A stretch of DNA of 44,712 nt from Escherichia phage vB_Eco_Lzu_P1. Below the pieces are notes generated by a model that worked only from the letters and a program-made list of their open reading frames with translations, searched no databases and was not told the DNA's origin. A program made the position numbers and the translations under genes. Within the stretch, counting starts at the first letter, position 1; each line of letters opens with the position of its first letter. Location: sequence record PQ295795, one strand, 5' to 3'. Positions 2,627 to 44,547 of this stretch are shown piece after piece.

Positions 2627-2646
2627 GTTCCGCCCTCCTATTGGTG

Positions 2647-2690: not shown

Positions 2691-2841
2691 AATCACGCGC
2701 ATGAAAAAGTCGATCGCTATCCGTTGCAACTGCAAACTGCATTTTTCACACCCCATTCAGCAACTCGCATTGGTTGCCTAGTTCAGTGACGACCGCAATC
2801 CGCAACATGCTGCCGTGTATTTTGCAATCCCGGATTTTATG

Positions 2842-3012: not shown

Positions 3013-3104
3013 TTTATTGCATAACTATGCATTATATTCACACTACACGGCAACCAATGTGACCAGATAAAAACGCTCAAAATGGAAACCAATGCGCGCA
3101 AAAT

Positions 3105-5369: not shown

Positions 5370-5379
5370 TGCCGTTGCC

Positions 5380-5709
5380 TTACTTCGAAGTTTTATTATT
5401 GCGTACCCAGGAGCGCACGGTGCTCTGATTAATTCCTGTCAACTCAGCGATCATTGCCCAGGATTTGCCCTCGGCGCGCAAACGGATAACCTGTTTTTTG
5501 TATTCTTCCATTTCGTCATTGTGCTTTTGCAGCTTGCTTGCTGCCGTGCCGTTGAGTAATTCCAGCTTCGCGGTAAGCTCCTTCTCAGCACGCGATAATC
5601 TGGACACTTCAAATAACAGAGTATCCACCGCATTTGTGTAATACCAGGATTTACCCGCTTCGCCGCGGATTGCATTAGATAACACTTCAATTGCTTCTTT
5701 GATATTCAT
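5380..5709 (-). CDS. Helix-turn-helix DNA-binding protein (putative transcription regulator)
   Basis: C-terminal GKSWAMIAELTGINQSTVRSWVRN is a classic HTH; first gene of the minus-strand block next to the divergent promoter region. Confidence 0.55.
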   Translation of the reverse strand: MNIKEAIEVLSNAIRGEAGKSWYYTNAVDTLLFEVSRLSRAEKELTAKLELLNGTAASKLQKHNDEMEEYKKQVIRLRAEGKSWAMIAELTGINQSTVRSWVRNNKTSK

Positions 5710-5740
5710 AATTCAGTCTCCTGTTGGCTAATGACCAACG

Positions 5741-5769
5741 AAACTACACCCAAAACTGCACGGTGTCAA
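5741..5769 (-). promoter_or_regulatory. Sigma70-like promoter for the minus-strand block
   Basis: Minus strand: TTGACA - 17 nt - TAGTTT, about 30 nt upstream of the RBS of the 5709 gene. Confidence 0.45.
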
Positions 5770-5839
5770 ATCCTTTGGATATTGAAACGGGCGCGCACGC
5801 GTGTAATAATAATTCCCGTCTCATTGTCTCTTATTGGTT

Positions 5840-5875
5840 AGCGCCGTCGCATTTTGCTTCGGCGCTTTTTTTTTT
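5840..5875 (+). terminator. Intrinsic terminator (plus strand) with T10 tract
   Basis: AGCGCCG-13 nt loop-CGGCGCT followed by TTTTTTTTTT; no plus-strand CDS upstream. Confidence 0.6.
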
Positions 5876-5885
5876 AAATTAGTTG

Positions 5886-5914
5886 TTGACTCCCTTCTGC
5901 AACCAATCTAATAT
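5886..5914 (+). promoter_or_regulatory. Early promoter (sigma70-like) for the plus-strand replication block
   Basis: TTGACT - 17 nt - TAATAT; spacer contains TGCAACCAAT motif. Confidence 0.55.
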
Positions 5915-6110
5915 TCACCTCGTCGACAGGATGCAGGAAGCAAACTGGAGAGGGGCAACGCAGGGGCCGGATCGAAGTGTCAGGATTCCCAACCGTGATT
6001 ATATAACCCGGTCCACTACCCGAAAGGGAGAACGCGCAACCGGGCGCTATGTTAAGGCCACCGACGAAGTTAATGGTCGACACCTAAACTTAACCAATCG
6101 GAGATATACC

Positions 6111-6650
6111 ATGTTTGAGCAAATCGTAAACCTGATCACTCGCGGCGTAGTAGCCCTGGAAATCATCGCTAAGCATTATGAAACCGTTGGCGCTGCCGTA
6201 GACCCAAAAGCAAACGGCACCGCTAAGAAAGGCAAGGCCAAGCCGGAGAACGAAGTCGAAGACGACGATCAGGACGAAGTCGAAGATACGCCCAAAGCGA
6301 AAAAAGGCGCGGCAAAAGAAACCAAGTCTAAAGGTAAGGCCAAAAAAGAAGTCGTAGAGGATGACGACGAGGATGAAGCCGAAGACGAAAAACCGGCTAA
6401 AACCAAAAAAGCACCAGCGAAAGGCAAAGGTAAGAAAGATGCCGATCCGCTGGCAGAGATGCGCGACGAAATCAAACAGTATGCCGCGATTATCGCAGGC
6501 GGTGATGACGACGATGCGAACGACGAATTCGACGACCTGCTGGAATCGTTCGAGATCAAATCAATCGCTAAACTGGAAGACGACGACGTGGAAGACTTCC
6601 ACAAAGACCTGAAAGAAATCGTCGAAACTTATTTCGAACTGGAAGATTAA
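6111..6650 (+). CDS. Highly charged low-complexity protein (alternating acidic and lysine-rich blocks), first early gene
   Basis: ATG at 6111 with GGAGAT RBS; 179 aa with runs such as EDDDQDEVED, KAKKGAAKETKSKGKAKK, GGDDDDANDEFDD; ORF track 5883..6650 includes an upstream extension without RBS. Confidence 0.6.
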   Translation: MFEQIVNLITRGVVALEIIAKHYETVGAAVDPKANGTAKKGKAKPENEVEDDDQDEVEDTPKAKKGAAKETKSKGKAKKEVVEDDDEDEAEDEKPAKTKKAPAKGKGKKDADPLAEMRDEIKQYAAIIAGGDDDDANDEFDDLLESFEIKSIAKLEDDDVEDFHKDLKEIVETYFELED

Positions 6651-6656
6651 TATTAT

Positions 6657-6686
6657 CCGGCCCGCAGATTAGCGGGCCTCTTTTTA
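6657..6686 (+). terminator. Intrinsic terminator
   Basis: GGCCCGC-agatta-GCGGGCC followed by TCTTTTT. Confidence 0.6.
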
Positions 6687-6698
6687 GAGGACGAGACA

Positions 6699-6950
6699 AT
6701 GGCACGCTTCACGCTAATAGAGGCGGTGGATTCCCGCGACCAGCGCCCATATTATTGGCTATTCGAACGCATCGGCAGCTTTCAATCACGCGTTGCCGTA
6801 ATTGATAAACGCCGCACTACACCCGCGCAAATTAAGCGCACCACCTTTACCAATCCAGACTTTTATATTTGGGCTGACTCCAATCTGGAATATGTTCGCT
6901 TCGCCGTTGCATCCGAAGCAAAAACAATTGACCGCTGGGAGACAAAATAA
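6699..6950 (+). CDS. Hypothetical protein (83 aa)
   Basis: ORF track; GAGGA RBS. Confidence 0.5.
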   Translation: MARFTLIEAVDSRDQRPYYWLFERIGSFQSRVAVIDKRRTTPAQIKRTTFTNPDFYIWADSNLEYVRFAVASEAKTIDRWETK

Positions 6951-7139
6951 ATGGCTATATTTTTCGTTTTATTTCGCTGCCGTATCACTGGCGACGAGAT
7001 ACCAGAAATAATCAGGCATGAGAACTGGCTTTGCTGTTGGGGGAAAGCCTGCGACCTGGCTTTGACAATGAACGAAGACGCGAAGCGGGACAATGTTGAA
7101 CACGATTATTACATTGCTCAATTTTCAAGGGTGGAATAA
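6951..7139 (+). CDS. Hypothetical protein (62 aa)
   Basis: ORF track; start abuts previous stop, stop overlaps next start (TAATG). Confidence 0.4.
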   Translation: MAIFFVLFRCRITGDEIPEIIRHENWLCCWGKACDLALTMNEDAKRDNVEHDYYIAQFSRVE

Positions 7140-8569
7140 TGGCGATTAAACCAAAACGTAAAACGCAATCCGGTAGCAATACGGAACACTCATTACTCGG
7201 GCCATCCGGTGCTAAAAAATGGATGGGTTGCCCTGCCGCCCTGGTGGTGGAAAAAGATATCCCGAACGAATCCGGGCAGGCGGCGATTAACGGTACGAGT
7301 ATGCACACCGTATCTGAAGTTGTGCTAAACCGCATTATCGCCGGTGAAAAGCTGATAACCGCAAAGACGTATAAAGGATGCTACGTCGAGAACGAAGGCA
7401 AGGGACCAGTAAAGGCCCACCCGAAAGCACCGAAAGGCGGCGTACTGGTCAACGACGATATGGTGAAACAGTGCGACGCGTACATCGACCACTGGCGACC
7501 GCTCCTCGAAGTGGCGGAGTTTGTCCAGCTTGAGATGCGCGCCGATCTCACCCGCGTCCTCCACCATGGCGTCGAGATCGACGGTAACAGGGTTAAGACG
7601 TTCGGCACTGCCGATATGGTCATGATCATGAAGAAGACCGATGGCACGTACATGCTGATTGTTGGCGACCTGAAGACCGGGCGACATAAGGTCGAGGCGA
7701 AAGAAAACAAACAGCTTATGTTGTACGCGCTCGGCCTGCTGCGCAAGCTGCAAACCATGTACGACATTACGACCGTGCGCCTGGTCATCTTCCAGCCGTA
7801 TTGCGGCGGGGCGTCAGAGTGGGATATCTCAGTGGAAGCGCTGGAGATATTCGCGAAGTTTGCGTCCAAGCGTGCTATCGCCGCGCTCGATGCATACGCC
7901 CGTGGCAAGAAGGGACTGACCCGCGCCGACTTCCGACCGAGCGTTGATGCGTGCCAGTGGTGCAGATTTGCGGACCAGTGCAGCGTCCGGGCGAAGGCCG
8001 CAATCGACACGATGACGCCACCAACGGCAACCGACGAAGACCTTGGCGACGACGTGAGCGTGGCAACCGAGGAAGAGTGCGCCAACCAAGACCGCAATAT
8101 GACCCGCGAAGCCCGGAAGGCTGCCCGACGTGCTAAACGGGGCAAGAAGGAATCCACCCCAGGCGCTATGAGCGCGGCGGAACTGCGCAAGGCTTATGAA
8201 GGACTTGACGCAATGCGCCAGCACATCAAAGCTATCGAGTACGCGGTATTCAAGGCGGTCATGGCGGGCGATGGCGAATCGTTGGGCCTTAAGATGGTTG
8301 CCGGTAAGGAAGGGATCCGTAAGTGGGCAGACGAGAGCGAAGTGATTGAAATCTTCACGAAGGCCCGGATCAAGCGCGATGTGATGTACAAAGAAACATT
8401 GCTCAGCCCGACCGATGCCGAGAAGGTACTGAAGGACGAGAAGCCGAAAGTGTGGGCGAAGCTGTGTGCTAAAATCACACGCGCACCTGCAAAACCGGTG
8501 TTAGCACCAATCGACGACCCGCGCCCCGCGTGGTCTGAAGCTACTGACGAGGACTTAAGCAATGAATAA
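7139..8569 (+). CDS. PD-(D/E)xK-family nuclease with C-terminal cysteine cluster (Cas4/RecB-like phage exonuclease)
   Basis: Motifs GTADMV ... IVGDLKTG (D...D-x-K) and C-terminal CQWCRFADQC; paired with the downstream SSB-like gene. Confidence 0.55.
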   Translation: MAIKPKRKTQSGSNTEHSLLGPSGAKKWMGCPAALVVEKDIPNESGQAAINGTSMHTVSEVVLNRIIAGEKLITAKTYKGCYVENEGKGPVKAHPKAPKGGVLVNDDMVKQCDAYIDHWRPLLEVAEFVQLEMRADLTRVLHHGVEIDGNRVKTFGTADMVMIMKKTDGTYMLIVGDLKTGRHKVEAKENKQLMLYALGLLRKLQTMYDITTVRLVIFQPYCGGASEWDISVEALEIFAKFASKRAIAALDAYARGKKGLTRADFRPSVDACQWCRFADQCSVRAKAAIDTMTPPTATDEDLGDDVSVATEEECANQDRNMTREARKAARRAKRGKKESTPGAMSAAELRKAYEGLDAMRQHIKAIEYAVFKAVMAGDGESLGLKMVAGKEGIRKWADESEVIEIFTKARIKRDVMYKETLLSPTDAEKVLKDEKPKVWAKLCAKITRAPAKPVLAPIDDPRPAWSEATDEDLSNE

Positions 8570-8804
8570 AGTATTCGCATTCTTATTGATGATTATGCTC
8601 GGTGCGCTGGGCTTTATCCTGCATTGCGTGCAAGGCGTGTTAATGGTAGCCTGGATGATTCGCCATCCGACCCGCTGGCTGGACGATGGCTATAGTGACG
8701 CTGCCGTAGACTGGGTGGGGAAGAACATCGACCGACCGCCGTTAAGCTGGATTGAGAACGCCACCAACTACGTGACCAGAAATCTTTTTAATAAAAGTGC
8801 TTGA
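8562..8804 (+). CDS. Small membrane protein (80 aa)
   Basis: ORF track; hydrophobic N-terminus VFAFLLMIMLGALGFILHCVQGVLMVAWMI; start overlaps previous stop. Confidence 0.45.
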   Translation: MNKVFAFLLMIMLGALGFILHCVQGVLMVAWMIRHPTRWLDDGYSDAAVDWVGKNIDRPPLSWIENATNYVTRNLFNKSA

Positions 8805-8829
8805 CCGCGCAGGCGCAACCAAGTAAATT
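8801..8829 (+). promoter_or_regulatory. Sigma70-like promoter
   Basis: TTGACC - 17 nt - TAAATT upstream of the SSB-like gene; spacer carries GCAACCAAG twice. Confidence 0.45.
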
Positions 8830-8894
8830 GGCAACCAAGCCGAACGGGGTGGCTCACAATAACCCCGATACATGTGAAAATGAGGAATTGGAAA

Positions 8895-9674
8895 ATGGCT
8901 AAAGTCAACCTGAAAAATGTGCGCGTATGTTTCCTGAATATTTGGGAACGTGATACCCCTAAACAGGCTGGGCAAAAACCGGCATACCGCGCCGTGATTC
9001 TTCTGGATAAAGAAGATCCGCAGGTGGACAAAGTGGAAGCGGCAGCGCGCGCAGCGCTCACCGTCAAGCTGAAATCCGAGAAGAATGCCGATAAGTGGAT
9101 GGACCGCCACTACGCCCAGGATTCTAAGGAATGCGCAGTCCGCGACGGTGACGAGCGCGACGAAGTAACCGAAGAATTCGAAGGCATGTTGTACATCAAC
9201 GCCAAATCGTTCAAGCAGCCAAACATTCAAACGTCACTCGGCGAGAAGCAGACTGAACAAGGTCTGACCGTAGAAGGCGACGAGATCGAAGGCCAGGAGA
9301 TCTACTCCGGTTGTTATTGCAACGTGTCACTGGATATTTGGGCGTGGAACAATACCAACGGCAAGGGACTCGGTGCTGGGCTTTTAGGTCTGCGCTTCCG
9401 TGATGACGGCGAAGCCTTCGGCGGTGGCGGATCTTCTTGCTCCGACGAAGACCTGGGCGACGATGACGAAAGCCCGCGCAAGTCCAAAAAGTCAAAACGT
9501 CGTGATGACGATGACGAAGATGACAAGCCGCGCAAGTCCAAAAAGTCCAAGCGCCGCGATGACGATGACGACGACGAAGATGAAAAACCTCGTAAACGTC
9601 GTAAGCCACGCGACGATGAAGATGAGGACGAAGACGACGAAGACGAAGCACCACGTAAACGTCGCCGTCGTTAA
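8895..9674 (+). CDS. Putative single-stranded DNA-binding protein with repetitive acidic/basic C-terminal tail
   Basis: ATG at 8895 with GAGGA RBS; N-terminal MAKVNLKNVRVCFLNIWE pattern and acidic tail resemble phage gp2.5-type SSBs; location next to exonuclease and polymerase. Confidence 0.4.
   Translation: MAKVNLKNVRVCFLNIWERDTPKQAGQKPAYRAVILLDKEDPQVDKVEAAARAALTVKLKSEKNADKWMDRHYAQDSKECAVRDGDERDEVTEEFEGMLYINAKSFKQPNIQTSLGEKQTEQGLTVEGDEIEGQEIYSGCYCNVSLDIWAWNNTNGKGLGAGLLGLRFRDDGEAFGGGGSSCSDEDLGDDDESPRKSKKSKRRDDDDEDDKPRKSKKSKRRDDDDDDEDEKPRKRRKPRDDEDEDEDDEDEAPRKRRRR
9474..9660 (+). repeat. Imperfect tandem repeat (about 57-bp unit, 2-3 copies) inside the SSB-like CDS
   Basis: ccgcgcaagtccaaaaagtc...gatgacgatgac repeated, encoding PRKSKKSKRRDDDDEDDK twice, then a degenerate third copy. 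Confidence 0.75.
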
Positions 9675-9692
9675 GGGCAAAGCCCACTATTC

Positions 9693-9718
9693 AAGCCCGC
9701 TTAATGCGGGCTTTTTAA
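9693..9718 (+). terminator. Intrinsic terminator
   Basis: AAGCCCGC-ttaat-GCGGGCTT followed by TTTTAAT. Confidence 0.6.
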
Positions 9719-9732
9719 TAGGACAATGAAAA

Positions 9733-9903
9733 ATGCGCATTAAAGCCAGCGAAGTAAAAGTCGGAATGCGAGTATGGTCCAAGCTACTGGGGGAATATTT
9801 CACCGTTGCCGAGATTCGCAACAACGGCGAGGAGATAACACTTTCCGACGGTATCTTCTCCATGATCGGCAGCGCTGACGCCGTAGTGAGGATTAAGCAA
9901 TGA
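9733..9903 (+). CDS. Small protein (56 aa) translationally coupled to the DNA polymerase
   Basis: ATG at 9733, stop TGA overlaps polymerase ATG (ATGA); below the 60-aa track threshold; weak RBS. Confidence 0.35.
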   Translation: MRIKASEVKVGMRVWSKLLGEYFTVAEIRNNGEEITLSDGIFSMIGSADAVVRIKQ

Positions 9904-12191
9904 AAGACTTCGAACGCCTGTTTCTCGATACCGAGACATTTAGCGGGGTAGACCTGAAGAAAGTTGGCGCATACGCCTACGCAGAGCACCCAACCACCGA
10001 GATTATGATTTGCACCTACGCCATCGACGAGGGCCGCGTGCAGACATGGGATTGCACCGAGTCCCCCACAATGCCACGTGAACTGCGCAAGGCGCTCCGC
10101 CAGGTATCCCGCAAGAAAGCAAAAATCGTGATGGCTAACGGCCTCCTGTTTGACCGCCTGGTTATTCGCGAGAAGTGGGGCATTGACCTGCCAGTGTGCC
10201 AGATCGAAGACACCATGATTATGGCCTTCCGACACGCGCTGCCGGGTAGTCTCGACATGCAGTGCCAGGTGCTGGGCGTTGACGCAGAACACGCGAAGGA
10301 TAAGGCTGGCAAGGCGCTGATCAAACGATTCTGTAAGCCAACCCCTAAGACCTACAAAATCCGCCGCTACACCCGCGAGACTCACCCTGAAGAATGGGCT
10401 AAATTCCTGCGCTATGCCGCGCTGGATATCATCGCGATGAGGGAAGTCTATTGGCGCATACCGGACTGGGGTAATACGCCGAAGGAAGACGAAATCCTGC
10501 TTATTGACCAGTTGATTAACGACCGCGGCTTCTATGTGGACGTTGACCTGGCACGCGCTGCGATCAAAGCGGTACAGGCGCATAAGGAAGAATTAAAGGA
10601 AGAAGCCCGGGAGCGCTTCGGCGGTAAGCTAACCGGAAATGACTTCCTGCCAGCGCTGCGCGACCTCGCGCCTGCGTTCACAATCCACAACGCGCAGAAA
10701 TCCACGCTTAACGACCTGCTGGAAGATCCAGACTTCCCCGATGAAGGCAAAGTGCTTATCGAGATGCGCCTCGGAGCGTCATCAACGGCGTCGACTAAAT
10801 ACAATCCGCTCGTAAATGGTCTGTCTTCCGATGGTCGCCGCCGTGGGTGTCTTCAGTATGGTGGGGCAAAGCGCACGCTACGCTGGGCCGGTAAAGGCTT
10901 CCAGCCGCAAAACCTGGCGCGAGGCGAGTATAGCGACGACCACGAGGGGAAGATTAAGCGCCGTGAGGGCGAGAGCGATATATCCTTTTGGGTGCGGTCG
11001 CACATGCTCACCAACGGCATCAACTCCCTGTTACGCGGGACCGCACACTGGGCGTATGACATATCGAAGCTAACGGCCTCGACCGTTCGCGGGTGCATTA
11101 TTCCGGCGAAGGGCAAGAAGTTTGTCGTCGCGGACTACTCCAACGTGGAAGGGCGCGGCCTTGCCTGGATCGCTGGCGAGAAAACCGCGCTAATGGTGTT
11201 TAGGGCCGGTCGCGATATTTATTGTGAGACTGCCGGTAAGATGTTCGGCCTCGATCCGGAATACATTAAAGCCAACCGCAAAGACTTACGCCAGATTGGT
11301 AAGGCGTGTGAGTTGGGACTTGGCTATGGCGGCGGCGTGGCTGCGTTCTTGCAGTTCGCTAAAAACCTGGGCCTCGACCTTTATGCGATGGCTGACGTGA
11401 TGAAGGGCACATTCCCCGATCACATTTGGGCGGCGGCGAAACGTGGTTATGAGTATGCCCGCATTAACGAAGCGAAGCGCCCGCCGAAGCCGGGCAAGAA
11501 GGACGAGCGCCCGACTTACATACTGCCGAAAAACGTATGGCTTACGTGTGATGCGATTAAACGCATGTGGCGCGAGGCTCACCCGAAGACGGTAGCATTT
11601 TGGGCCGAGCTTGAGGACGCGGTGCTCTGCGCGATCCGCAATCCGGGCAAAGCGTACTGGGCTGGCGCGAACGTTCGCCCGGATGGTAAGAAAGCGCTCA
11701 AGATAGTCCGCACGAAGGCGAAGCATGACCCAACCTTCGACGAGGAGCGCGACGACCCGAACGCCGCTGGGTGGTGGTTGAAAATTGAGTTGCCGTCTGG
11801 GCGTATTATGAGTTACCCAGGCATTGCGCTGTCAGTGACGACCGAGATCGACGAAGACACCGGCAAGAAACGCACCAGCACCCGCATTAAATATCAGGGT
11901 GAGAATCAGACGACGCGCCAGTGGGGATTCCAGTACACCTACGGCGGCAAACTCACGGAAAACATCGTGCAGGCGCTGTGCCGCGATATCCTCGCATGGT
12001 CCATGCCGGGCGTTGAAGCTGCGGGGTATGAAATCGTCCTGTCAGTGCACGATGAACTGATAACCGAAGTGCCGGATACCGACGACTACACAACCGAGGA
12101 GTTGTGCGCGCTGATGTGCGACCTGCCGGTTTGGGCGAAAGGCTTCCCGCTTGCCGCGGAAGGCGACATTATGTACAGGTACAGAAAATGA
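9900..12191 (+). CDS. Family-A (Pol I-like) DNA polymerase with 3'-5' exonuclease domain
   Basis: 763 aa; Exo I motif LDTETF, motif A DYSNVEGR, motif B RQIGKACELGLGYGGG, motif C VHDEL. Confidence 0.9.
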   Translation: MKDFERLFLDTETFSGVDLKKVGAYAYAEHPTTEIMICTYAIDEGRVQTWDCTESPTMPRELRKALRQVSRKKAKIVMANGLLFDRLVIREKWGIDLPVCQIEDTMIMAFRHALPGSLDMQCQVLGVDAEHAKDKAGKALIKRFCKPTPKTYKIRRYTRETHPEEWAKFLRYAALDIIAMREVYWRIPDWGNTPKEDEILLIDQLINDRGFYVDVDLARAAIKAVQAHKEELKEEARERFGGKLTGNDFLPALRDLAPAFTIHNAQKSTLNDLLEDPDFPDEGKVLIEMRLGASSTASTKYNPLVNGLSSDGRRRGCLQYGGAKRTLRWAGKGFQPQNLARGEYSDDHEGKIKRREGESDISFWVRSHMLTNGINSLLRGTAHWAYDISKLTASTVRGCIIPAKGKKFVVADYSNVEGRGLAWIAGEKTALMVFRAGRDIYCETAGKMFGLDPEYIKANRKDLRQIGKACELGLGYGGGVAAFLQFAKNLGLDLYAMADVMKGTFPDHIWAAAKRGYEYARINEAKRPPKPGKKDERPTYILPKNVWLTCDAIKRMWREAHPKTVAFWAELEDAVLCAIRNPGKAYWAGANVRPDGKKALKIVRTKAKHDPTFDEERDDPNAAGWWLKIELPSGRIMSYPGIALSVTTEIDEDTGKKRTSTRIKYQGENQTTRQWGFQYTYGGKLTENIVQALCRDILAWSMPGVEAAGYEIVLSVHDELITEVPDTDDYTTEELCALMCDLPVWAKGFPLAAEGDIMYRYRK

Positions 12192-12469
12192 TGACACCAG
12201 AAGGCAAGATTCAAAGTCACCTTATGAAGCTGGTGAAAGCCGTCGGCGGATTCTGCCGAAAACTGGCATGGGAGGGGCGCGCAGGAGCGCCCGACCTCAT
12301 AATCATCATCAACGGCAAGATAGTTTTCGTCGAAGTGAAGCGCCCAGGCGGTAAACCTAAGCCGCACCAGGTACGAGAACATGAGCGAATGGCCTGCCGC
12401 GGTGCGGACGTTCGCGTCATCGACAACATAGCCGACTGTGATTTATTGGTTGCTGAATTGGTCGCGTAG
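12188..12469 (+). CDS. VRR-NUC domain nuclease
   Basis: ATG overlaps polymerase stop (ATGA); GAPDLIIIINGKIVFVEVKRPGGKPKPHQ matches the VRR-NUC D...E-V-K core. Confidence 0.6.
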   Translation: MMTPEGKIQSHLMKLVKAVGGFCRKLAWEGRAGAPDLIIIINGKIVFVEVKRPGGKPKPHQVREHERMACRGADVRVIDNIADCDLLVAELVA

Positions 12470-12509
12470 CAGTATAGTGGGCCGGTTAGCCCTATCGAGG
12501 ATTTTAGAA

Positions 12510-12683
12510 ATGGTTGAAGAAAAACGTTGTAGTAATTGCGGTTGTGTTAAACCGCTATCCCAGTTCCATAAATACACCGGTAAGACTGCGCGAAGCCCGG
12601 ACGGGTATCGGGCAGAGTGCAAATCGTGCCGCAATAAAAAAGAGCGCGAACGGCAGCGCCGCTACCGCGCAGAGCAAAAATAA
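12510..12683 (+). CDS. Small zinc-ribbon protein (C-x2-C ... C-x2-C), possible transcription factor
   Basis: ATG at 12510 with GAGGA RBS; CSNCGC ... CKSC pattern, basic C-terminus. Confidence 0.4.
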   Translation: MVEEKRCSNCGCVKPLSQFHKYTGKTARSPDGYRAECKSCRNKKERERQRRYRAEQK

Positions 12684-12689
12684 TTAATA

Positions 12690-12715
12690 CGGCGGGCTTG
12701 TCCCGCCATTTTTGG
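12690..12715 (+). terminator. Intrinsic terminator (stem contains the TTGTCCCGCC motif)
   Basis: GGCGGG-cttgt-CCCGCC followed by ATTTTTGG. Confidence 0.5.
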
Positions 12716-12726
12716 GAGACATGACG

Positions 12727-12945
12727 ATGAAAGAACATTATCGACTCACCACACTTGGCGAATGCAAACCAGGCGATCGCGTATGGTTTATCGCGGGCAT
12801 GAATTACCCGCTGCCGTTAACGGTGTGCTGGCAAAAATTTAAGAGCTTCCAGGCGACGGGTGTACACATCGGACACGCCACCAACTACGACGCCACAAAA
12901 AGGAACTGGAACAGTGAGACAGAAGTCTGGAAAAAGGCGGAATAA
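12727..12945 (+). CDS. Hypothetical protein (72 aa)
   Basis: ATG at 12727, GGGAGA RBS 7 nt upstream; track ORF 12712..12945 starts at TTG. Confidence 0.45.
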   Translation: MKEHYRLTTLGECKPGDRVWFIAGMNYPLPLTVCWQKFKSFQATGVHIGHATNYDATKRNWNSETEVWKKAE

Positions 12946-12949
12946 AGAT

Positions 12950-14374
12950 ATGGCACGATTCCGACGCCGCGAATATCAGAAGTTGATAACCGCGTTCATC
13001 CTCAAGCATAAGCGATGCAATATATGGGCGACAATGGGGTCGGGTAAAACTGGCGCGACCATGTGGGCACTGAATAAAATGTTCCAGACCGGCATCCTGT
13101 CCCTCCTGGAGGACCGCGTACTGGTGCTGGCCCCTCTGCGCGTTGCATCCGGCACATGGCCCCCGGAACAGGAAAAATGGCGCTTCCCCGCCTTGCTGGT
13201 AGTAGATGGCACTGGGTCCGAGAAGGACCGCATCGCTGCGCTTGAGAGCGACGCTAACGTGGTTTGTATTAACTATGATGTGGTTGAGTGGCTCGTCGAG
13301 TATTGCGGCGACGAGTGGCCCTTCACGGTAGTTGTTGCCGATGAATCCACTAAGCTGAAAGGCTATAGAAGCAAGCAGGGGAGTAAGCGCGCCCGCGCAC
13401 TGGCGGCGATTGCCCATAAGCACGTCAAGCGCTGGATTAACCTGACCGGCACACCCGCACCAAACGGGCTGAAAGACCTATGGGGTCAGACGTGGTTTGT
13501 CGATGGTGGCGAACGCCTCGGCAGTAGCTATAAGGCATTTACGGATCGCTGGTTTATTAGCAAGCCTGTTAAGCCTGGCAGCTTCACTATGCAGCACGCC
13601 CCGCTTAAGAACTCCGAGAAAGAAATCCAACAACGCCTGTCCGACGTGTCGCTAACAGTTGACGCGGCTGAATACTTCGGGTGTGACAAGCCGATCTATA
13701 CGCCGGTTGTTGTGGACCTGCCGAAGAAAGCCCGTAAGATTTATGACCAGTTCGAAGCGGAGCTATTTGCCGAACTGGAAAGCGGAACTGTGGAGGCCGC
13801 AAACGCCGCGTCGAAGACTATTAAGTGCCTTCAGCTTGCTTCGGGTGCCGTATATAAAGTCGACGAAGACGGCGAGCGCACCGACGAATGGGTGAAAATT
13901 CACGACGCTAAACTGGACGCGCTGGAAAGTATCGTGGAGGAGTTGAACGGCGCACCGTTGCTCGTCGCGTACCAGTACAAGCATGACCTGGCACGTCTTA
14001 AGAAGAAATTCCCGCACGGCGTAGCGATGGGTAAGGGGAAGCAAGGCAATAAGGATATGGAAGCGTGGAACAGGGGCGAGATCCCCATCATGTTCGCACA
14101 CCCGGCATCGGCGGGTCACGGCCTTAACTTGCAGGATGGCGGACACCACCTTGCCATCTTCTCCGACACCTGGAACTATGAGCATTTTTCGCAGATTGTG
14201 GAGCGTATCGGGCCGGTTCGCCAGATGCAAGCCGGACACCCTCGTCCGGTATTCGTCTACATTATCCAGGCGCGTGGCACACTGGATGAACTGGTCGCGG
14301 AGCGTCGCGACAGTAAGCGCGATATTCAGGACGACCTGATGGAATACATGAAAGCTAAAAAGGCGCGCAAATGA
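12950..14374 (+). CDS. SNF2-like superfamily-2 helicase
   Basis: Walker A MGSGKTGA, motif II VVADESTK, motif III LTGTPAPN; track ORF 12860..14374 has an N-terminal extension without RBS. Confidence 0.7.
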   Translation: MARFRRREYQKLITAFILKHKRCNIWATMGSGKTGATMWALNKMFQTGILSLLEDRVLVLAPLRVASGTWPPEQEKWRFPALLVVDGTGSEKDRIAALESDANVVCINYDVVEWLVEYCGDEWPFTVVVADESTKLKGYRSKQGSKRARALAAIAHKHVKRWINLTGTPAPNGLKDLWGQTWFVDGGERLGSSYKAFTDRWFISKPVKPGSFTMQHAPLKNSEKEIQQRLSDVSLTVDAAEYFGCDKPIYTPVVVDLPKKARKIYDQFEAELFAELESGTVEAANAASKTIKCLQLASGAVYKVDEDGERTDEWVKIHDAKLDALESIVEELNGAPLLVAYQYKHDLARLKKKFPHGVAMGKGKQGNKDMEAWNRGEIPIMFAHPASAGHGLNLQDGGHHLAIFSDTWNYEHFSQIVERIGPVRQMQAGHPRPVFVYIIQARGTLDELVAERRDSKRDIQDDLMEYMKAKKARK

Positions 14375-15081
14375 CTATTGCTAAAATGACAATCTGGTCA
14401 TTATTTGACGGCAGCGGCTTGATGATTGAGCGTGCTGCCGAGATGGGGAATAAGTGTTATTGCTTCAACTACTCCGAAGCCGATCACGGGTCGTACCTGG
14501 ACTACCGGATTTATGGGCGCGGTATCCGATATCGTAATGAGTTTATCGATCTGGACTTCGTGGACCGCGCGATGAATGGTGATTTTGGTACGCCGGATAT
14601 CATCTACGCATTCCCGCCGTGTACTGATCTGGCGGTGAGCGGTGCGCCAGCTTTCCCGCGTAAGCGTGCAAAAGACCCAGCCTTTCAGATTAAGGCGGTG
14701 CGCACCGCGAAGATCGCCGCTTACCTGGGTGATTTCTTCGAAGTGCCATATATGATTGAGAATCCGCGCAGCGTGCTATCAACTCAATGGCGTAAGCCGG
14801 ACCACTCGTTTGACCCGTGGGAGTATGGCGGATATCTGCCGGAGGATGACGTGCACCCGTTATTCCCGGAATACATCAACGCCCGCGATTCATATCCGAA
14901 GTTGACCTGCTTATGGACCGGCAACGGCTTCCGTATGCCAGAGAAGAAACCTGTTTTCGTTGAAAAAGGGTACTCGAAGCAGTATAGTCGCCTCGGAGGC
15001 AAATCAGCCCGCACAAAATTAATCCGGTCGCTCACCCCGCGCGGCTTCGCGATAGCGGTTAACGAGGAAAATTTAAAATGA
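14371..15081 (+). CDS. DNA C5-cytosine methyltransferase-like protein (short, small target-recognition region)
   Basis: Motif I-like LFDGSG, motif IV-like FPPC, motif VI-like ENP, motif X-like RSLTPRGF; ATGA overlap with helicase. Confidence 0.45.
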   Translation: MTIAKMTIWSLFDGSGLMIERAAEMGNKCYCFNYSEADHGSYLDYRIYGRGIRYRNEFIDLDFVDRAMNGDFGTPDIIYAFPPCTDLAVSGAPAFPRKRAKDPAFQIKAVRTAKIAAYLGDFFEVPYMIENPRSVLSTQWRKPDHSFDPWEYGGYLPEDDVHPLFPEYINARDSYPKLTCLWTGNGFRMPEKKPVFVEKGYSKQYSRLGGKSARTKLIRSLTPRGFAIAVNEENLK

Positions 15082-15401
15082 ATACTGCATTCGACGCCAT
15101 CGACTTTTCAGTGGCAATGACCAATCAGCTTTTTTCCTACGACAGCAAGACCGGCGTCATTCGCCTGAAGTCAACCGGCTGCAAGATTGGCAACCTCAAT
15201 ACTGCCGATGGCGGTACTCGTATCGAATGCAACGGCAAGACGCTGTCTGGCGCACGCGTGGCGTGGATTATCGCGACCGGCAATACAATCCCCCCAGGCT
15301 TTGCCGTTGTGTGCCGTCAGCGCACGCCAGGCCATTACGGCAACCGGATCAGCAATCTTTATTTGGTGGACGTTGCGCGCGACCCAAATTTTTATGCGTA
15401 A
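15078..15401 (+). CDS. HNH endonuclease (HNH_3-type homing endonuclease-like)
   Basis: GHYGNRISNLYLV matches the H-x-x-N-x3-NL-x-LV HNH core; free-standing between two methyltransferase-like genes. Confidence 0.5.
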   Translation: MNTAFDAIDFSVAMTNQLFSYDSKTGVIRLKSTGCKIGNLNTADGGTRIECNGKTLSGARVAWIIATGNTIPPGFAVVCRQRTPGHYGNRISNLYLVDVARDPNFYA

Positions 15402-15406
15402 ATTGG

Positions 15407-15435
15407 TTGCATAATCATATTGGTTGCATTATATT
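15407..15435 (+). promoter_or_regulatory. Sigma70-like promoter formed by two direct ATTGGTTGCA motif copies
   Basis: TTGCAT - 17 nt - TATATT; motif copies at 15402-15411 and 15417-15428. Confidence 0.55.
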
Positions 15436-15482
15436 GAGGGTGTCCGGTTTGGACGCCCTTTTTAATACCTGGAGACAACACG

Positions 15483-15941
15483 ATGAAAATTTTACAAGAA
15501 GAGAAAAATTACTGGGCCGCGCAATGCCTCGAAGCCCGCGAGCAAACGGCCAACGCGAAACAATCGGCCGAAATCTTCCGGTCAGGTTATGAAACGGAAG
15601 AAAAGCGTCGCATGGAGTTAGAGGAGCGCTTCGAACTGCTATTCGAATTGATGGGGATTATGCAACGCACCGGATACACCACCAGCGTTGCACTAAACCG
15701 CATCACTGCCGATAGTTTGCGTGAGCACTGTAAACGTGCGGAGGAGTACGTGCGACCGAAGGGCCGCCAGTCTAAGATTGACCGGAAAGACCTGGTGCTG
15801 GTTGCGTGGCGAGGGAACGGGTCTTACTACTCCGACTGCCGACCACTCGGCACCGAGGAATCAAAGCGCGTGCAACGCGTTCTAAACAGTAATAAGAAAA
15901 TTGCCCTGTACGCGATAGATCCAGATCATGCAGAAGAGTGA
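15483..15941 (+). CDS. Hypothetical protein (152 aa)
   Basis: ORF track; GGAGA RBS. Confidence 0.5.
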   Translation: MKILQEEKNYWAAQCLEAREQTANAKQSAEIFRSGYETEEKRRMELEERFELLFELMGIMQRTGYTTSVALNRITADSLREHCKRAEEYVRPKGRQSKIDRKDLVLVAWRGNGSYYSDCRPLGTEESKRVQRVLNSNKKIALYAIDPDHAEE

Positions 15942-16413
15942 GCAAAAAGATAGCTGGCGCACGCCGCCAGCTTTATTTAAACCGCTGCGCCGGAAGTACC
16001 GATTCCGTTATGACATGGCGGCGAGCGACACCAACCACCTGCTACCGCGTTACTTCACGGCAGAGCACAGCGCGCTTGAGGTGGACTGGTCAGAGTTGAA
16101 AGGGTGGAAGTGGTGCAATCCGCCGTATTCCGATCCGCTGCCGTGGGTCGAGTGCGCAGCGCACGGACGCAGGACTGTCATGCTGCTGAATCAGGACACG
16201 TCGACGAAGTGGGCGAGGCTGGCCCGGAAGACTGCAAACCTGATAATTCTTCTGGACTGGCGGATCCGATTCATCCATGCTGTGACCGGTGAAGTCGGGC
16301 CGAGCAATAACAAGTGCCAGCAATTGATAATCTTTGACGAAGCGCCGCCCATCGGCAGCGCACAAATTGAAATAATGAGCGAGAGTGAGTTACATGAATA
16401 TCTTAATCGTTGA
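15928..16413 (+). CDS. Phage-type DNA N6-adenine methyltransferase
   Basis: WCNPPYS (NPPY catalytic motif) and N-terminal WRTPP; size and layout typical of small phage Dam-like enzymes. Confidence 0.7.
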   Translation: MQKSEQKDSWRTPPALFKPLRRKYRFRYDMAASDTNHLLPRYFTAEHSALEVDWSELKGWKWCNPPYSDPLPWVECAAHGRRTVMLLNQDTSTKWARLARKTANLIILLDWRIRFIHAVTGEVGPSNNKCQQLIIFDEAPPIGSAQIEIMSESELHEYLNR

Positions 16414-40424: not shown

Positions 40425-41810
40425 TTAGTAGAAGTCTACGGTTGGAACAACGGCGATCGGTCGAATCACAGGGAACAAGTGCGCAATAGGGTAGCCCGCC
40501 GCGTCATTCATGTGGTCCACACCGGCTGTTTTATCCGGTTCGCCTTTCTTCAGGTCGTACACCTGCTGTTCCAGACATTTCGCTAGTGTAGGGCATTTAT
40601 CCAGGTTGACAAAATACTGGCGCACGCCCTTCGAGTTGCACATCATCGTATTCATCGCGATAAGTCTGTCTTTCACTGGCGGGTTAACGCTGTCATATTC
40701 CACATCGAAGCCCGCGTCTTCCAGTTGCGCGATATCGGACGACGACGCGTTGACCGTCTTGCGGGATTTGCCACTGCTATCCGGGTAAACGACGACCCTA
40801 CCGGCGGCACAATGATCGGGGTAGCGCTCCTCGATCGCCTCAATCATCGCCGGGGTGTCGAACAGGTCCACGAATTCGTCCACCGCGTGGATCTCGTCGC
40901 GGAACTCCTTGTTCTCGGTGACTCGCTGCCGCCTGACGTACACAACCGCCGCCATCTTAGTGACGTTAAAGTCCATACCGATAATCAGCGTGTCTTCCGG
41001 CTGCACTTCTTCGGTGCTGGCGTTCTCCTCGCGGTTGAACATCTTGTACACCGCGCCCGACGTAAGGTTAACAAACAGGCCGTTCAGGTACGCGTCGATC
41101 AGGTTAGCTGGGTATTGACTACGCAGCGTGTCGATAAAGTCTGCCGGTAAATGGTGGTTGTCCGTGGTCTTCGCCCGGATCAAGCGTTTTTGGTTATCCT
41201 TCTCCACCTCGAAAATTTGGTACATCGCCCGGTAGCCTTCAGGCGTTGACACGATGACGAACTGGCGGACGAAGCCCGCACGCAGACGACCGAGCAATTT
41301 GTGATATGCCGCCAGCGCGACGTCTTGCTTCGTAGTGTCGAATTCATCTGCAACAATCCACGCGGCGTTGACCCCGATCAGGCGGGTATAGTTCTCCATT
41401 GATTCACAGATAACGCGTGTCCATTTCCCTTTCACCAGCACGTTATAGATCTTGTCCTGCTTATTGAACTTCCACCGGAAGCCCGCCTCGTCAAACGCCT
41501 TTTCCAATTCCGGGTACATGATTTTGACCAGGAGGGGAATAGTCGGTTCTGTAACGATACCGTCATGACCGGGGTTCAGGGTTAAAAGCTGGATGACCTT
41601 ACGCGCAGCGACCCACGACTTTCCACCACCGAAGCCGGAACACAGGCCGAGGATTTTAGTCTTCGTGTCGCGCAGTAGTTCAACCTGGTGCGGCAAGCAA
41701 TCAGGCTGGTAAAGGCGGACGGCCTGCGCAACGCGTGTTGGGCGTGGCGGTCGGTTGCGCTTTGCGATCGCGCGTTCCAGTGCGCGGTGTTCTGCCGCAT
41801 AGTTACGCAT
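40425..41810 (-). CDS. terL: Terminase large subunit
   Basis: Walker A GFGGGKS, Walker B IVADEFD, C-terminal nuclease-type acidic residues; 461 aa. Confidence 0.85.
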   Translation of the reverse strand: MRNYAAEHRALERAIAKRNRPPRPTRVAQAVRLYQPDCLPHQVELLRDTKTKILGLCSGFGGGKSWVAARKVIQLLTLNPGHDGIVTEPTIPLLVKIMYPELEKAFDEAGFRWKFNKQDKIYNVLVKGKWTRVICESMENYTRLIGVNAAWIVADEFDTTKQDVALAAYHKLLGRLRAGFVRQFVIVSTPEGYRAMYQIFEVEKDNQKRLIRAKTTDNHHLPADFIDTLRSQYPANLIDAYLNGLFVNLTSGAVYKMFNREENASTEEVQPEDTLIIGMDFNVTKMAAVVYVRRQRVTENKEFRDEIHAVDEFVDLFDTPAMIEAIEERYPDHCAAGRVVVYPDSSGKSRKTVNASSSDIAQLEDAGFDVEYDSVNPPVKDRLIAMNTMMCNSKGVRQYFVNLDKCPTLAKCLEQQVYDLKKGEPDKTAGVDHMNDAAGYPIAHLFPVIRPIAVVPTVDFY

Positions 41811-42361: not shown

Positions 42362-42491
42362 GATATAAGCCCTTTTGTTCATATGCGCCGACCATCGGCA
42401 ACATAGGAGACGGCCCTGCCATCTAACGGGGATTATAACAGGCACAAAAAAGCCCACCAAATCGGCAGGCTGGGAGGGGTACGGGTTGCCG

Positions 42492-43634
42492 TTACTTCAA
42501 CATTTCCGGGCTAATGGTTAAGCGCGCTACTTCGCCGTAGTTGGCGCTGTAGGTAATGACGTTGGCGCTGCGACCTGACATCCAACCGCCACGACTGGCG
42601 TAGGCGTCTTTCGCTGCGAGCGTCCTGTGCTGTTCAACAATCATGTTGCGGGATTCAACAATCTTCTGGTGGTGCAAATGGCCTACGTGCGCGTAGCTGT
42701 ATTCGCTCGCCCCGAACGCCTGTCTGAATTTAGCGATCATAACCTGCTCGATAACATCGAATCGCGCTTTGTGCCCGTGGTGGAAGAATAGCGTGGTCTT
42801 TCCGTGCTGCACCATTTTGTAAACGTCCGGGGACGTATCCACATCGACGCGCGGCTCGTTCTCGTACAGAGTATTGAACATCTCAGCCAGCCAGATCATA
42901 CCCGACTCATCATGATTCCCCTGGACGATTAGCAGTTTGACTTTGTGGTGTTTTTGCAGCGCCAGGTCTACCACGTTGCGCACCATGCGGATCATATAGC
43001 GGACCAACTTCTGGTATCTGGTGTCGGCGTCCAGTACGTGACCGCTGGCGGGAGTGACGGCGTCGAGGCTATCAAAGTGCGCCATATCGCCGAGGATATT
43101 GATCACGGCAGTGCCTGCGTCTGGTGCGCGTGCGAAGGCTTCGACAAACCAGCGGTAGAACAGGTCTTCGGCGATCGCCATATCCCAGTCTTCGCCAGTC
43201 TCCTCGCCCCACGCCAACATGCCCAGGTGGAAGTCGGACACGGTGTACAGGTTGAGCAAGTCGAGCGCCTGGGTATACTGGCATGGGGCGTTTACTGGCG
43301 CTGCCGGTGTGATTTCGCTGTTCATACCCTCGACAACAGCGCGCATGGCTTCGAGTTGGCGCTCCTTATCCTGCTCAGTGATGACCCACGACATGACCTC
43401 TTCGCCATTGCCGCGCACCAGGGCCGATACGCGCTTAACGCCGAAGCCATCGGCAACGCGCTTGCGGATTACGGCATCGTTGCCGTGCCCAATTCCTTTT
43501 TTCGATAGGCGGGCTTTCCGCATATAGACATTGCGCAGGGCAATCCCGTATTTCTTCGCAATCTCTTTAACCGTAGTCCCTGCCTGAATTTCTGCGATCA
43601 ATTGCTCATCGGTAATTTTAGTTTGCGGGTGCAT
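42492..43634 (-). CDS. Calcineurin-like metallophosphoesterase with N-terminal helix-turn-helix domain
   Basis: HTH TVKEIAKKYGIALRNVYMRKARL; phosphoesterase motifs DFHLG, GDMAH, GNHDE, GHLHH. Confidence 0.6.
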   Translation of the reverse strand: MHPQTKITDEQLIAEIQAGTTVKEIAKKYGIALRNVYMRKARLSKKGIGHGNDAVIRKRVADGFGVKRVSALVRGNGEEVMSWVITEQDKERQLEAMRAVVEGMNSEITPAAPVNAPCQYTQALDLLNLYTVSDFHLGMLAWGEETGEDWDMAIAEDLFYRWFVEAFARAPDAGTAVINILGDMAHFDSLDAVTPASGHVLDADTRYQKLVRYMIRMVRNVVDLALQKHHKVKLLIVQGNHDESGMIWLAEMFNTLYENEPRVDVDTSPDVYKMVQHGKTTLFFHHGHKARFDVIEQVMIAKFRQAFGASEYSYAHVGHLHHQKIVESRNMIVEQHRTLAAKDAYASRGGWMSGRSANVITYSANYGEVARLTISPEMLK

Positions 43635-43656: not shown

Positions 43657-43682
43657 GGACCGTGTACAATATACCACGGTCC
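43657..43682. promoter_or_regulatory. Perfect 8-bp-arm palindrome GGACCGTG-tacaatatac-CACGGTCC (operator or RNA stem-loop)
   Basis: Read directly; lies between the 26-aa ORF and the phosphoesterase RBS. Confidence 0.4.
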
Positions 43683-43695: not shown

Positions 43696-43776
43696 TTATA
43701 TCAATTCGCAAATAACCATGCCGATAAAAGCCGCGGTGGTCCAGATCGCTAATACCCAAATATCGCTACGTGCCAT
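43696..43776 (-). CDS. 26-aa hydrophobic micro-protein
   Basis: MARSDIWVLAIWTTAAFIGMVICELI; strong RBS GAGGAG 8 nt upstream; below track threshold. Confidence 0.35.
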   Translation of the reverse strand: MARSDIWVLAIWTTAAFIGMVICELI

Positions 43777-43796: not shown

Positions 43797-43830
43797 ATTG
43801 GTTGCAGTATGGCGTCTATGTTGGTTGCAA
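43797..43830 (+). promoter_or_regulatory. Pair of ATTGGTTGCA motifs (regulatory site; promoter orientation ambiguous)
   Basis: Motif at 43797-43806 and 43821-43830; plus-strand TTGATT - 17 nt - TATGTT, minus-strand TTGACT - 18 nt - CATACT. Confidence 0.35.
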
Positions 43831-43848
43831 GTCAAGCAATAAAAAGCC

Positions 43849-43873
43849 CGGTATTATCCGGGCTTGATTGTTT
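43849..43873 (-). terminator. Intrinsic terminator ending the lysis operon
   Basis: Minus strand AAGCCCGG-ataata-CCGGGCTT followed by TTTATTG. Confidence 0.65.
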
Positions 43874-44039
43874 ACGCTGCGGGGCCGGGTTCTTCCGGCG
43901 GTGGCGGGCTTGGCAGCTTCGCGTCAAAGACGCCTGCATGGCTGATAGTGTCCGCGATGATAGCGCGTGCGCCAGGGTCTTCGGTTTTAGCCAGCGCGGC
44001 GAGCGCGTCAGCGTTATGATCAAGAATACTTTTTAACAT
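43872..44039 (-). CDS. Hypothetical small protein (55 aa) downstream of endolysin
   Basis: ATG 44039 with GAGGTGA RBS 6 nt upstream; MLKSILDHNADALAALAKTEDPGARAIIADTISHAGVFDAKLPSPPPPEEPGPAA; below track threshold. Confidence 0.45.
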   Translation of the reverse strand: MLKSILDHNADALAALAKTEDPGARAIIADTISHAGVFDAKLPSPPPPEEPGPAA

Positions 44040-44055: not shown

Positions 44056-44547
44056 TTATGCAGCGTTACGTCCGATTCGCTCGGCAACGTCCCACTGCTT
44101 GCCATCAAACAACGCCTGTCTGCCGATTGCACGGCGTACCAGACCCTTCAGCACTTCCCCGCCTTGCTTGCGGAACTGCGGCAGAGTAGCACGGACCTTC
44201 GCCCAGTCCCCCAGTCGCACCGCATCGTCGAAATCATTCGCGACGTCATCCGGTACGATAGGACCAGGACCGGCGTTGATTACCAGGTCCACCAGCGCGT
44301 CGAATTGCGCCTGGTTAATGCTCTTATGAGCGTATTTGTTCACCCAGTCCTCAGCATACGCCACATCGCGCTTGAGCAGTGCCAGCGCTTCCTCGCGGGT
44401 AATGCTTCGAGGCGGATTAGTGCCAGTATGACCATAACCCCAGGTGTACAGGCCGCGGGCCTGCTCTTTCTTGGTCGCGAAATACGGCACCGGGCTGAAA
44501 GCCTCCCATGCTGCCGTAAATCTTAGACCGTTGTCACTGAATCGCAT
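44056..44547 (-). CDS. Endolysin (GH24 T4-type lysozyme)
   Basis: N-terminal catalytic region FTAAWEAF ... LYTWGYGHTG matches Glu/Asp/Thr lysozyme core; 163 aa; preceded by two holin-like genes. Confidence 0.8.
   Translation of the reverse strand: MRFSDNGLRFTAAWEAFSPVPYFATKKEQARGLYTWGYGHTGTNPPRSITREEALALLKRDVAYAEDWVNKYAHKSINQAQFDALVDLVINAGPGPIVPDDVANDFDDAVRLGDWAKVRATLPQFRKQGGEVLKGLVRRAIGRQALFDGKQWDVAERIGRNAA

Follow-up and report, generated by a model that had tools for sequence, protein, structure and literature searches.

Next to the terminase genes of a Dhillonvirus coliphage lies a gene whose product joins a helix-turn-helix (HTH) domain to a calcineurin-like metallophosphoesterase (MPE), and the question raised by this locus is what such an enzyme does for the phage. 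The gene occupies positions 42492-43634, on the minus strand, of the genome of Escherichia phage vB_Eco_Lzu_P1 (PQ295795), which was analyzed over its whole length of 44,712 nucleotides (hereafter the window). The window is a Dhillonvirus coliphage: phage HK1 matched a 2.2-kb region at 96% identity, and matches at the nucleotide level came from 156 phage records. In the reading to which we lean, with a little more than even confidence, the protein is an HTH-tethered, Rad50-independent and catalytically active DNA phosphodiesterase or nuclease of phage DNA metabolism, acting on ends or intermediates and/or on host DNA and expressed from its own transcription unit; QatABCD would depend on the protein or its products to act against SECphi4-like phages.

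Modules, active site and family of the protein

The gene and the modules of its product are as follows, in coordinates of the window and residues of the protein (AF2, AlphaFold2):

42492..43634, minus strand: ATG-to-TAA open reading frame (ORF) of 380 codons, T1 gp16-type HTH-metallophosphoesterase (PHROG 704), from the ORF list and homology
43497..43613, minus strand: N-terminal three-helix HTH (residues 8-46), LuxR/GerE/sigma-70-region-4-like, from AF2 helices and family profile matches
43311..43451, minus strand: middle module (residues 62-108), family-specific, a long beta-hairpin and a helix with a near-invariant W83, from AF2
42495..43259, minus strand: MPE catalytic domain (residues 126-380) with motifs I-V, from the motifs and AF2

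The AF2 model of the 380-aa (amino acid) protein, built on a 100-sequence alignment, had a mean predicted local distance difference test score (pLDDT) of 92.4 and a predicted template modeling score (pTM) of 0.81. Three HTH helices (residues 9-17, 22-29 and 33-45) were modeled at a pLDDT of ~93-95 and were followed by a linker of low confidence (about residues 47-61), by the two strands (64-73 and 79-88) and the helix (90-107) of the middle module, for which no Pfam match was found, and by an MPE beta-sandwich (126-380) at a pLDDT of 95-98. On the query alone, Pfam HTH models matched weakly, with E-values of 0.02-0.2 (GerE 0.017, HTH_28 0.026). At the family level, Sigma70_r4_2 was matched by 15 of 100 members (best E-value 1.5e-9) and GerE by 8 of 100 (2.4e-8), the family profile matched GerE/LuxR-type HTH structures in the PDB (GerE 1fse, E-value 0.017), and the HTH, hairpin-helix and MPE columns were all occupied in 100/100 aligned homologues. 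Hence, while single-sequence Pfam matches are marginal, the family-level and structural evidence settles the assignment, and the HTH-MPE architecture that an earlier note had proposed for this gene is confirmed.

The canonical phosphoesterase motifs were all found: D134-F-H136, G182-D183, G239-N240-H241-D242, H285-H286-G-H288 and G318-H319-L-H321, corresponding to the calcineurin-like metal signature DxH/GD/GNH[DE]/H/GHxH. Conservation was read from two alignments, of 60 and of 100 diverse homologues, whose identity to the query was 32-49%. Residues D134, H136, G182, D183, N240, H241, H286, G318 and H321 were invariant, and H319 was kept in at least 90% of the homologues. The family-specific positions W83, H186, D188, T194, P195, L201, D202, D204 and R206 were likewise invariant or at least 90% conserved (W83 was invariant in the first alignment and at least 90% conserved in the second), and mark out a family-specific loop of the MPE domain, H186-x-D188 ... 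T194-P-x-S-G-H-x-L201-D202-x-D204-x-R206. Because the ligands are conserved in both alignments, selection acts on the active site, and the motifs did not match by chance. D134, H136, D183, N240, H286, H319 and H321 would form the two-metal center, with H241 as the probable catalytic histidine. The HTH sequence was poorly conserved compared with these invariant catalytic residues, which argues that catalysis is the selected function. The earlier note would have been undone by an inactive metal site on alignment or by homology to an ordinary packaging protein; the site is intact, and homology led to no packaging protein.

The scores of the protein against superfamily models were low: 20.3 bits for PF00149 (Metallophos; gathering cut-off 21.5) and 23.2 bits for PF12850 (Metallophos_2; cut-off 27), both below threshold, and only 25/100 and 17/100 family members matched these models at E<=0.01. 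Judged by sequence, the T1 gp16-type family is divergent from the MPE superfamily. PHROG 704 ('DNA repair exonuclease') matched over the full length (E-value 6.8e-161, residues 5-380 on profile positions 2-390 of 390), a 'DNA repair exonuclease' of phage HH3 was 99.5% identical, and phage T1 gp16 (ST16) was 45% identical over residues 4-379, HTH included. With this full-length profile match and all three modules, the protein belongs to the PHROG 704/T1 gp16 family, and the statement in the note that the combination is not recognizable from well-studied phages does not hold.

Homologues were found by tblastn in 2058 phage records, with carriers including Dhillonvirus, Kagunavirus, Jerseyvirus, Drexlerviridae, Jedunavirus and phages of Vibrio, Campylobacter, Rhodobacter and Flavobacterium. 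Among 1.84 billion cluster representatives (50% clustering), searched exhaustively, 4638 belonged to the family at E<=1e-3 and 1126 still did so at E<=1e-30, nearly all of them 360-430 aa long. The gp16-type gene is persistent in 508/522 Drexlerviridae (PMC13164509). The gene is thus already known: it belongs to the catalogued core genes of T1-like phages and Dhillonviruses, and hundreds of GenBank records label it 'DNA repair exonuclease' or 'phosphoesterase'. Annotations of the homologues vary between 'DNA repair exonuclease', 'calcineurin-like phosphoesterase', 'winged HTH domain protein' and 'hypothetical', and phage Henu5_1 labels its homologue 'DNA polymerase small subunit'. The family name 'DNA repair exonuclease' is a remote-homology annotation based on similarity to Mre11/SbcD. 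An NCBIfam search of the protein returned noise only.

Structural neighbors and a possible role on DNA

Structure comparison gave the highest scores to the PolD DP1 proofreading exonuclease (15.8, 215 residues aligned), Thermotoga Mre11 (15.1) and S. aureus SbcD (15.0), followed by LpxH (13.8), MJ0936 (13.4), YfcE (12.8), the cyclic nucleotide monophosphate (cNMP) phosphodiesterase Rv0805 (12.1), GpdQ (12.1), a P. putida nuclease MPE (9.1) and the protein phosphatase PP5 (9.0). Foldseek agreed, with Mre11 at the top; against viral models it returned mostly uncharacterised phage MPEs, several of them auto-named 'DNA polymerase II small subunit'. On the modeled fold, the nuclease branch (Mre11, SbcD, PolD-DP1) is nearest, by a small margin. 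Sequence similarity to any solved MPE was negligible, and single-sequence and profile searches of PDB sequences gave nothing useful for the MPE domain, the matches to armadillo-repeat designer proteins being repeat artefacts. Archaeal PolD DP1 and the eukaryotic B-subunits have an OB fold ahead of the phosphodiesterase domain and a DP2 or catalytic-subunit partner, whereas the protein in the window has neither: residues 62-108 form two strands and a helix and no five-stranded OB fold. T1 is without any DNA polymerase gene, and Dhillonviruses use a family A polymerase.

From these neighbors and the conserved metal site we infer a stand-alone binuclear metallophosphoesterase of a nuclease-like branch that carries its own N-terminal HTH on a flexible linker. 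The HTH, possibly together with the hairpin-helix module, would bring the enzyme onto DNA; in Mre11/SbcD this loading is the task of Rad50/SbcC and of the capping domain, both absent here, and the HTH and hairpin-helix module stand in place of these extras. The metal center would hydrolyze DNA phosphodiester bonds at ends or structured intermediates. The enzyme might act on DNA ends, processing or resecting them so that recombination-dependent replication and concatemer formation can proceed, and/or degrade the host chromosome into mononucleotides that are used again, which would place it in the core DNA metabolism, and not the packaging, of virulent T1-like and Dhillonvirus phages and of related prophages. 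As a precedent, T4 gp46/47 (Rad50/Mre11) work in recombination as well as in the breakdown of host DNA. For T1, a study that followed host-chromosome abundance by read coverage reported robust degradation of the chromosome (bioRxiv 10.64898/2026.03.01.708804).

A functional parallel comes from the MPE of Cluster A mycobacteriophages (A10ZJ24 Gp48, Bxb1 gp47), a stand-alone phage MPE with phosphodiesterase activity for which disruption of the host's genomic DNA and a requirement in phage DNA replication in M. tuberculosis have been reported (PMC12287305). This protein differs in its length (~255 aa) and in having no HTH, and is kin at the superfamily level only. Membership in the same family was rejected, since hhalign against the Bxb1 gp47-type protein gave a probability of 3.6% and covered motifs III-V only.

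The class III cNMP phosphodiesterases Rv0805 and CpdA share the calcineurin-like MPE superfamily with the protein, and an anti-defense cyclic-nucleotide phosphodiesterase was among the functions raised in the earlier note. In the manner of these enzymes, it would destroy second messengers of CBASS, Pycsar, Thoeris or type III CRISPR. We regard this as very improbable. Nucleases scored higher in the structure comparison, a DNA-binding HTH is fused to the enzyme in 100/100 aligned members, and the gene is a persistent core gene and not a patchy accessory one (PMC13164509). PADLOC returned no defense-system match for the gene, its neighborhoods are those of DNA metabolism and lysis and not anti-defense clusters, and no signaling step has been described for QatABCD.

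Gene order at the locus and in other lineages

The surroundings of the gene comprise the following features, in the order of transcription:

44056-44547, minus strand: endolysin
43872-44039, minus strand: 55-aa ORF
43838..43865, minus strand: intrinsic terminator closing the upstream lysis-gene transcript
43806..43835, minus strand: sigma-70 promoter-like site TTGACT-18-CATACT, a consensus match only (9/12)
43696-43776, minus strand: unannotated hydrophobic 26-aa ORF (MARSDIWVLAIWTTAAFIGMVICELI) separating the lysis genes from the MPE gene; Shine-Dalgarno sequence GGAG
43657..43682, minus strand: perfect palindrome GGACCGTG-N10-CACGGTCC with 8-bp arms, 22 nt before the MPE start codon
43668-43676, minus strand: extended -10-like element TGGTATATT, overlapped by the palindrome
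42444..42471, minus strand: intrinsic terminator (9-bp stem and T-run) directly 3' of the MPE stop codon
42432-42440, minus strand: perfect extended -10 element TGTTATAAT ahead of terS
~42361 (ATG), minus strand: start of terS (183 aa, as in the HK1 annotation)
40425-41810, minus strand: terL

The MPE gene does adjoin the terminase genes, as had been noted: it reads in the same direction as terS, 131 nt upstream of it. A terminator and an extended -10 element stand between the two, and the gene is thus insulated from the packaging operon; bracketed by terminators, it would form its own transcription unit. Annotated terminators also flank the gp16 unit in T1, so that T1 and the window phage have in common the family, the architecture and a unit set between terminators close to the lysis cassette. 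They differ in gene order: in T1, gp16 is followed by the lysis genes and the terminase is 33 kb away, whereas in Dhillonvirus the lysis genes are followed by the MPE gene and terS. A packaging-associated nuclease or pac-site recognition factor working with TerS/TerL would account for the proximity to terS and for an HTH domain, which is typical of small terminase subunits. We give this reading scarcely any chance and reject a packaging role, in view of the strong terminator and separate promoter before terS and of the homologues lying away from terminase in T1, Drexlerviridae, Jersey, Vibrio, Campylobacter and Jedunavirus phages and in prophages. The placement beside the terminase belongs to the Dhillonvirus gene order and says nothing about function; the link is positional only.

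The sigma-70 promoter-like site at 43806-43835 is weakly evidenced, given that three such sites were found against 2.1 expected in shuffles. The mechanically called terS ORF starts at a TTG at 42460 (216 aa) and overlaps the terminator at 42444-42471; the true start is probably the ATG at 42361.

The perfect 8-bp-arm palindrome overlapping an extended -10-like element just ahead of the MPE start codon suggests a possible operator or 5' RNA hairpin. The protein might accordingly be a transcription regulator whose HTH, of the sigma-70 region 4/LuxR type, sits on the palindrome over its own promoter or on late promoters near the lysis genes, with the MPE as sensor or modulator, and the gene does lie at the early/late boundary beside lysis genes in many lineages. 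The comparative data make this highly improbable. HK1 has a variant with 9-bp arms, and a perfect upstream inverted repeat of at least 7 bp was present in only 2/27 other lineages and absent from 25; the palindrome is Dhillonvirus-specific. It is moreover deleted in a Dhillonvirus contig with a 97% identical MPE, and the HTH is poorly conserved next to the invariant catalytic residues. Autoregulation via the palindrome was rejected on the missing cross-lineage support and on this deletion.

The context of the gene elsewhere was examined in 80 viral loci (44-97% identity), whose 1494 ORF proteins were clustered by BLAST and which fell into 28 lineages at 70% MPE identity. PHROG and Pfam scans covered 108 neighbor proteins from the 28 viral lineages and 126 from 21 bacterial loci. 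In T1 and phage tinuso, the gene follows dam and small ORFs and precedes HNH, holin and endolysin genes, with a helicase also among the neighbors. In phage Jersey it lies within the tail module on the opposite strand, and in a Vibrio phage it adjoins the gene of an OB-fold protein. In Campylobacter phage F352 it comes after DNA ligase and near a Holliday-junction resolvase, as a gene of T4-like Campylobacter phages. The F352 homologue (L006:4824-5777), named 'putative recombination endonuclease', is HTH-less, has 317 aa and is 30% identical over the catalytic domain; that it is a gp47 orthologue paired with gp46 was not supported, no Rad50-like neighbor being found there. The recurrent annotated classes within two genes on either side were polynucleotide or nucleotide kinases (in a few lineages), HNH endonucleases, lysis genes, and exonucleases, DNA polymerase or primase. 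The gene thus accompanies genes of DNA and nucleotide metabolism at the boundary of early and late genes.

The kinase neighbors suggest an end-healing phosphoesterase, which would remove 2',3'-cyclic or 3'-phosphates like the MPE domain of bacterial Pnkp and, together with a phage kinase, phosphatase and ligase, mend damage by host nucleases. In a Klebsiella Jedunavirus, the gene overlaps a 'polynucleotide kinase' (PNK) gene and a P-loop kinase gene comes next; in F352 the ligase precedes it; PNK and nucleotide-kinase families are its most recurrent annotated neighbors in the 28 lineages, and in Drexlerviridae the genes found most often downstream of it encode PNK and deoxynucleoside monophosphate (dNMP) kinase (PMC13164509). 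A dNMP kinase gene so often downstream also fits nucleotide salvage from degraded DNA. On inspection, the 'PNK' proteins of T1 ST64, Jedunavirus and a further locus (L023) consist of a PNKP 3'-phosphatase domain of the haloacid dehalogenase (HAD) type only (176-188 aa). The 'PNK' genes and their neighbors are located at:

L005:4948-5478 (T1 ST64)
L007:1904-2470 and 2474-3019
L023:7159-7719 and 7716-8282

A HAD 'PNK' gene that adjoins the MPE gene is followed by a separate gene for a P-loop 'dNMP kinase', and the pair may be a split Pnk or mis-named genes. End healing is rather improbable in our view, as these PNKP-type 3'-phosphatases already supply the activity, Dhillonviruses encode no PNK, the HAD phosphatase gene of T1 is 35 kb distant, and the kinase association is found in only a few of the 28 lineages. 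The idea of a kinase-only PNK needing the MPE as its phosphatase was rejected, because the 'PNK' is itself a HAD phosphatase and Dhillonviruses are without PNK.

The family is not confined to virulent phages. Homologues were found within Mb-scale chromosomes of Stutzerimonas, Dyella, Luteimonas, Frateuria, Bordetella and Pseudomonas (loci L089-L117), where they adjoin endolysin, holin, spanin, RusA and HNH genes in a position like the nin region of lambdoid prophages; by these neighbors, the chromosomal copies are prophage genes. Lambda ninI occupies a similar position, and its product, the protein phosphatase lambda-PP, belongs to the same calcineurin-like superfamily. A protein Ser/Thr/Tyr phosphatase acting on host or phage phosphoproteins would be in keeping with both this kinship and the placement of the prophage copies between RusA/HNH genes and the lysis cassette. 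We give it very little credence; the PPP protein-phosphatase signature GDxHG/GDxVDRG/GNHE was absent from the 380-aa protein.

Several observations concern the rest of the genome and its annotation. The 26-aa ORF may encode a small membrane peptide tied to the lysis cassette, as judged from its sequence and position; it is intact in HK1, in JL1 and in a more divergent contig (L009, 85% aa identity), is deleted in another (L008), and is replaced in the JL1 annotation by an opposite-strand ORF. In HK1, the counterpart of the 55-aa ORF at 43872-44039 goes under the name 'major tail protein', and the portal under 'minor tail protein'. In this region 'Acinetobacter phage NJ01' shares 94% identity with coliphage Dhillonviruses, pointing to a misassigned host or to contamination. 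By homology to JL1, positions 3105-16413 hold a T7-like replication module of primase-helicase, gp2.5-like SSB (a protein that binds single-stranded DNA), family A DNA polymerase and exonuclease, and two DNA methyltransferases are also encoded in the genome, along with a Lar-like gene for restriction alleviation. In SECphi4, the orthologous SSB has been published as a trigger of Retron-Eco8/ShosTA, and the orthologous polymerase as a trigger of Borvo.

Orthology to a QatABCD escape gene

The available genetic datum on the family comes from another phage isolate, SECphi4, to which the window phage is linked here by sequence orthology of this gene. SECphi4 escapers of QatABCD (strain SG181) carried a tandem 16-bp duplication in a 'predicted DNA repair exonuclease' (Stokar-Avihail et al., bioRxiv 10.1101/2022.08.27.505566, Table S2), with the predicted escape allele E377_K380indelLNH, which turns ...SPEMLK into ...SPLNH* (bioRxiv 10.1101/2022.08.27.505566). 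The SECphi4 protein is identical to that in the window at 373/380 residues (98%), with an identical C-terminus, and the unit duplicated in the escapers is identical in the window:

42509..42524, minus strand: 16-nt unit CGCTTAACCATTAGCC

When the duplication was rebuilt in the window sequence, it gave a 379-aa protein ending in ...TISPLNH*, equal to the published allele. The gene in the window is hence the orthologue of the Qat-escape gene, mutated tail included. The escape allele alters only the last four residues, among which M378, like the preceding P376, is moderately conserved in the family. Three occurrences were counted, and the two displayed rows stood at 50% and 57% of reads (bioRxiv 10.1101/2022.08.27.505566); a read frequency of ~50% would be a common outcome for a short tandem duplication in junction-based callers.

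That a change in the SECphi4 tail leads to escape implies that the protein, or its effect on DNA, is needed for QatABCD to act. By this one genetic datum, the gene is a sensitivity determinant for QatABCD and no counter-defense. A more specific and doubtful proposal is that the T1 gp16-type protein is the missing phage-side component of QatABCD, either with its tail (...SPEMLK) recognized directly by QatBC/QatA or with its DNA ends or nucleotides activating QatC-dependent deazaguanylation and the QatD nuclease. The gene is not mentioned, and no trigger identified, in the 2026 QatABCD papers (PMC13279940, PMC13639016, PMC13376578, PMC13434339), one of which raises the possibility that QatC needs 'a phage trigger to be activated'; in PMC13639016, a reaction of QatBC with CDG and ATP failed. 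Other phages restricted by QatABCD are lambda-vir, T4, P1vir, Bas25 and Bas39; as these are not of the T1/Dhillonvirus type, the HTH-MPE protein cannot be a universal Qat trigger.

A number of points weigh against a DNA-directed nuclease needed for Qat defense. Mre11/SbcD proteins, including T4 gp47 and T5 D13, have a capping domain and a Rad50/SbcC partner, whereas the protein in the window has only 59 residues after motif V, no capping domain and no such partner; Rad50/SbcC was annotated in none of T1, JL1 and HK1 and was found among neither the 108 viral nor the 126 bacterial-locus neighbor proteins. No conserved partner gene emerged, as no neighbor family occurred in more than 8/28 lineages and none was positionally fixed, and no conserved upstream operator was found across lineages. 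The three Qat escapers carry one identical mutation and are effectively a single event. In E. coli, the SECphi4 gene was placed under the control of PBAD and expressed alongside Qat with 0.3% arabinose as inducer (bioRxiv 10.1101/2022.08.27.505566, Table S3), and a gene that can be cloned and induced would argue against an unrestrained nuclease that destroys host DNA. Qat was not among the five systems with specific co-expression toxicity (trigger-positive pairs) in that study (bioRxiv 10.1101/2022.08.27.505566). The searched literature held no biochemical or knockout evidence for any family member: searches on T1 gene functions, on the genetics of host DNA degradation and on Drexlerviridae with metallophosphoesterase returned nothing specific to the gp16-type gene, and the Metis and PhageMaP preprints concern other phages.

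For the biology of these phages, the protein is of modest interest in two ways. It belongs to a very large family whose name rests on remote similarity to Mre11/SbcD and which may represent a Rad50-independent, HTH-tethered nuclease, and the gp16-type protein is a candidate for the enzyme behind the degradation of the host chromosome by T1. It is also the only phage gene so far linked genetically to QatABCD escape, and thereby a direct experimental handle that has been published but not exploited. If the protein or its products do act on the phage side of QatABCD, they would permit the in-vitro reconstitution of Qat activation, which the 2026 structural studies did not reach.

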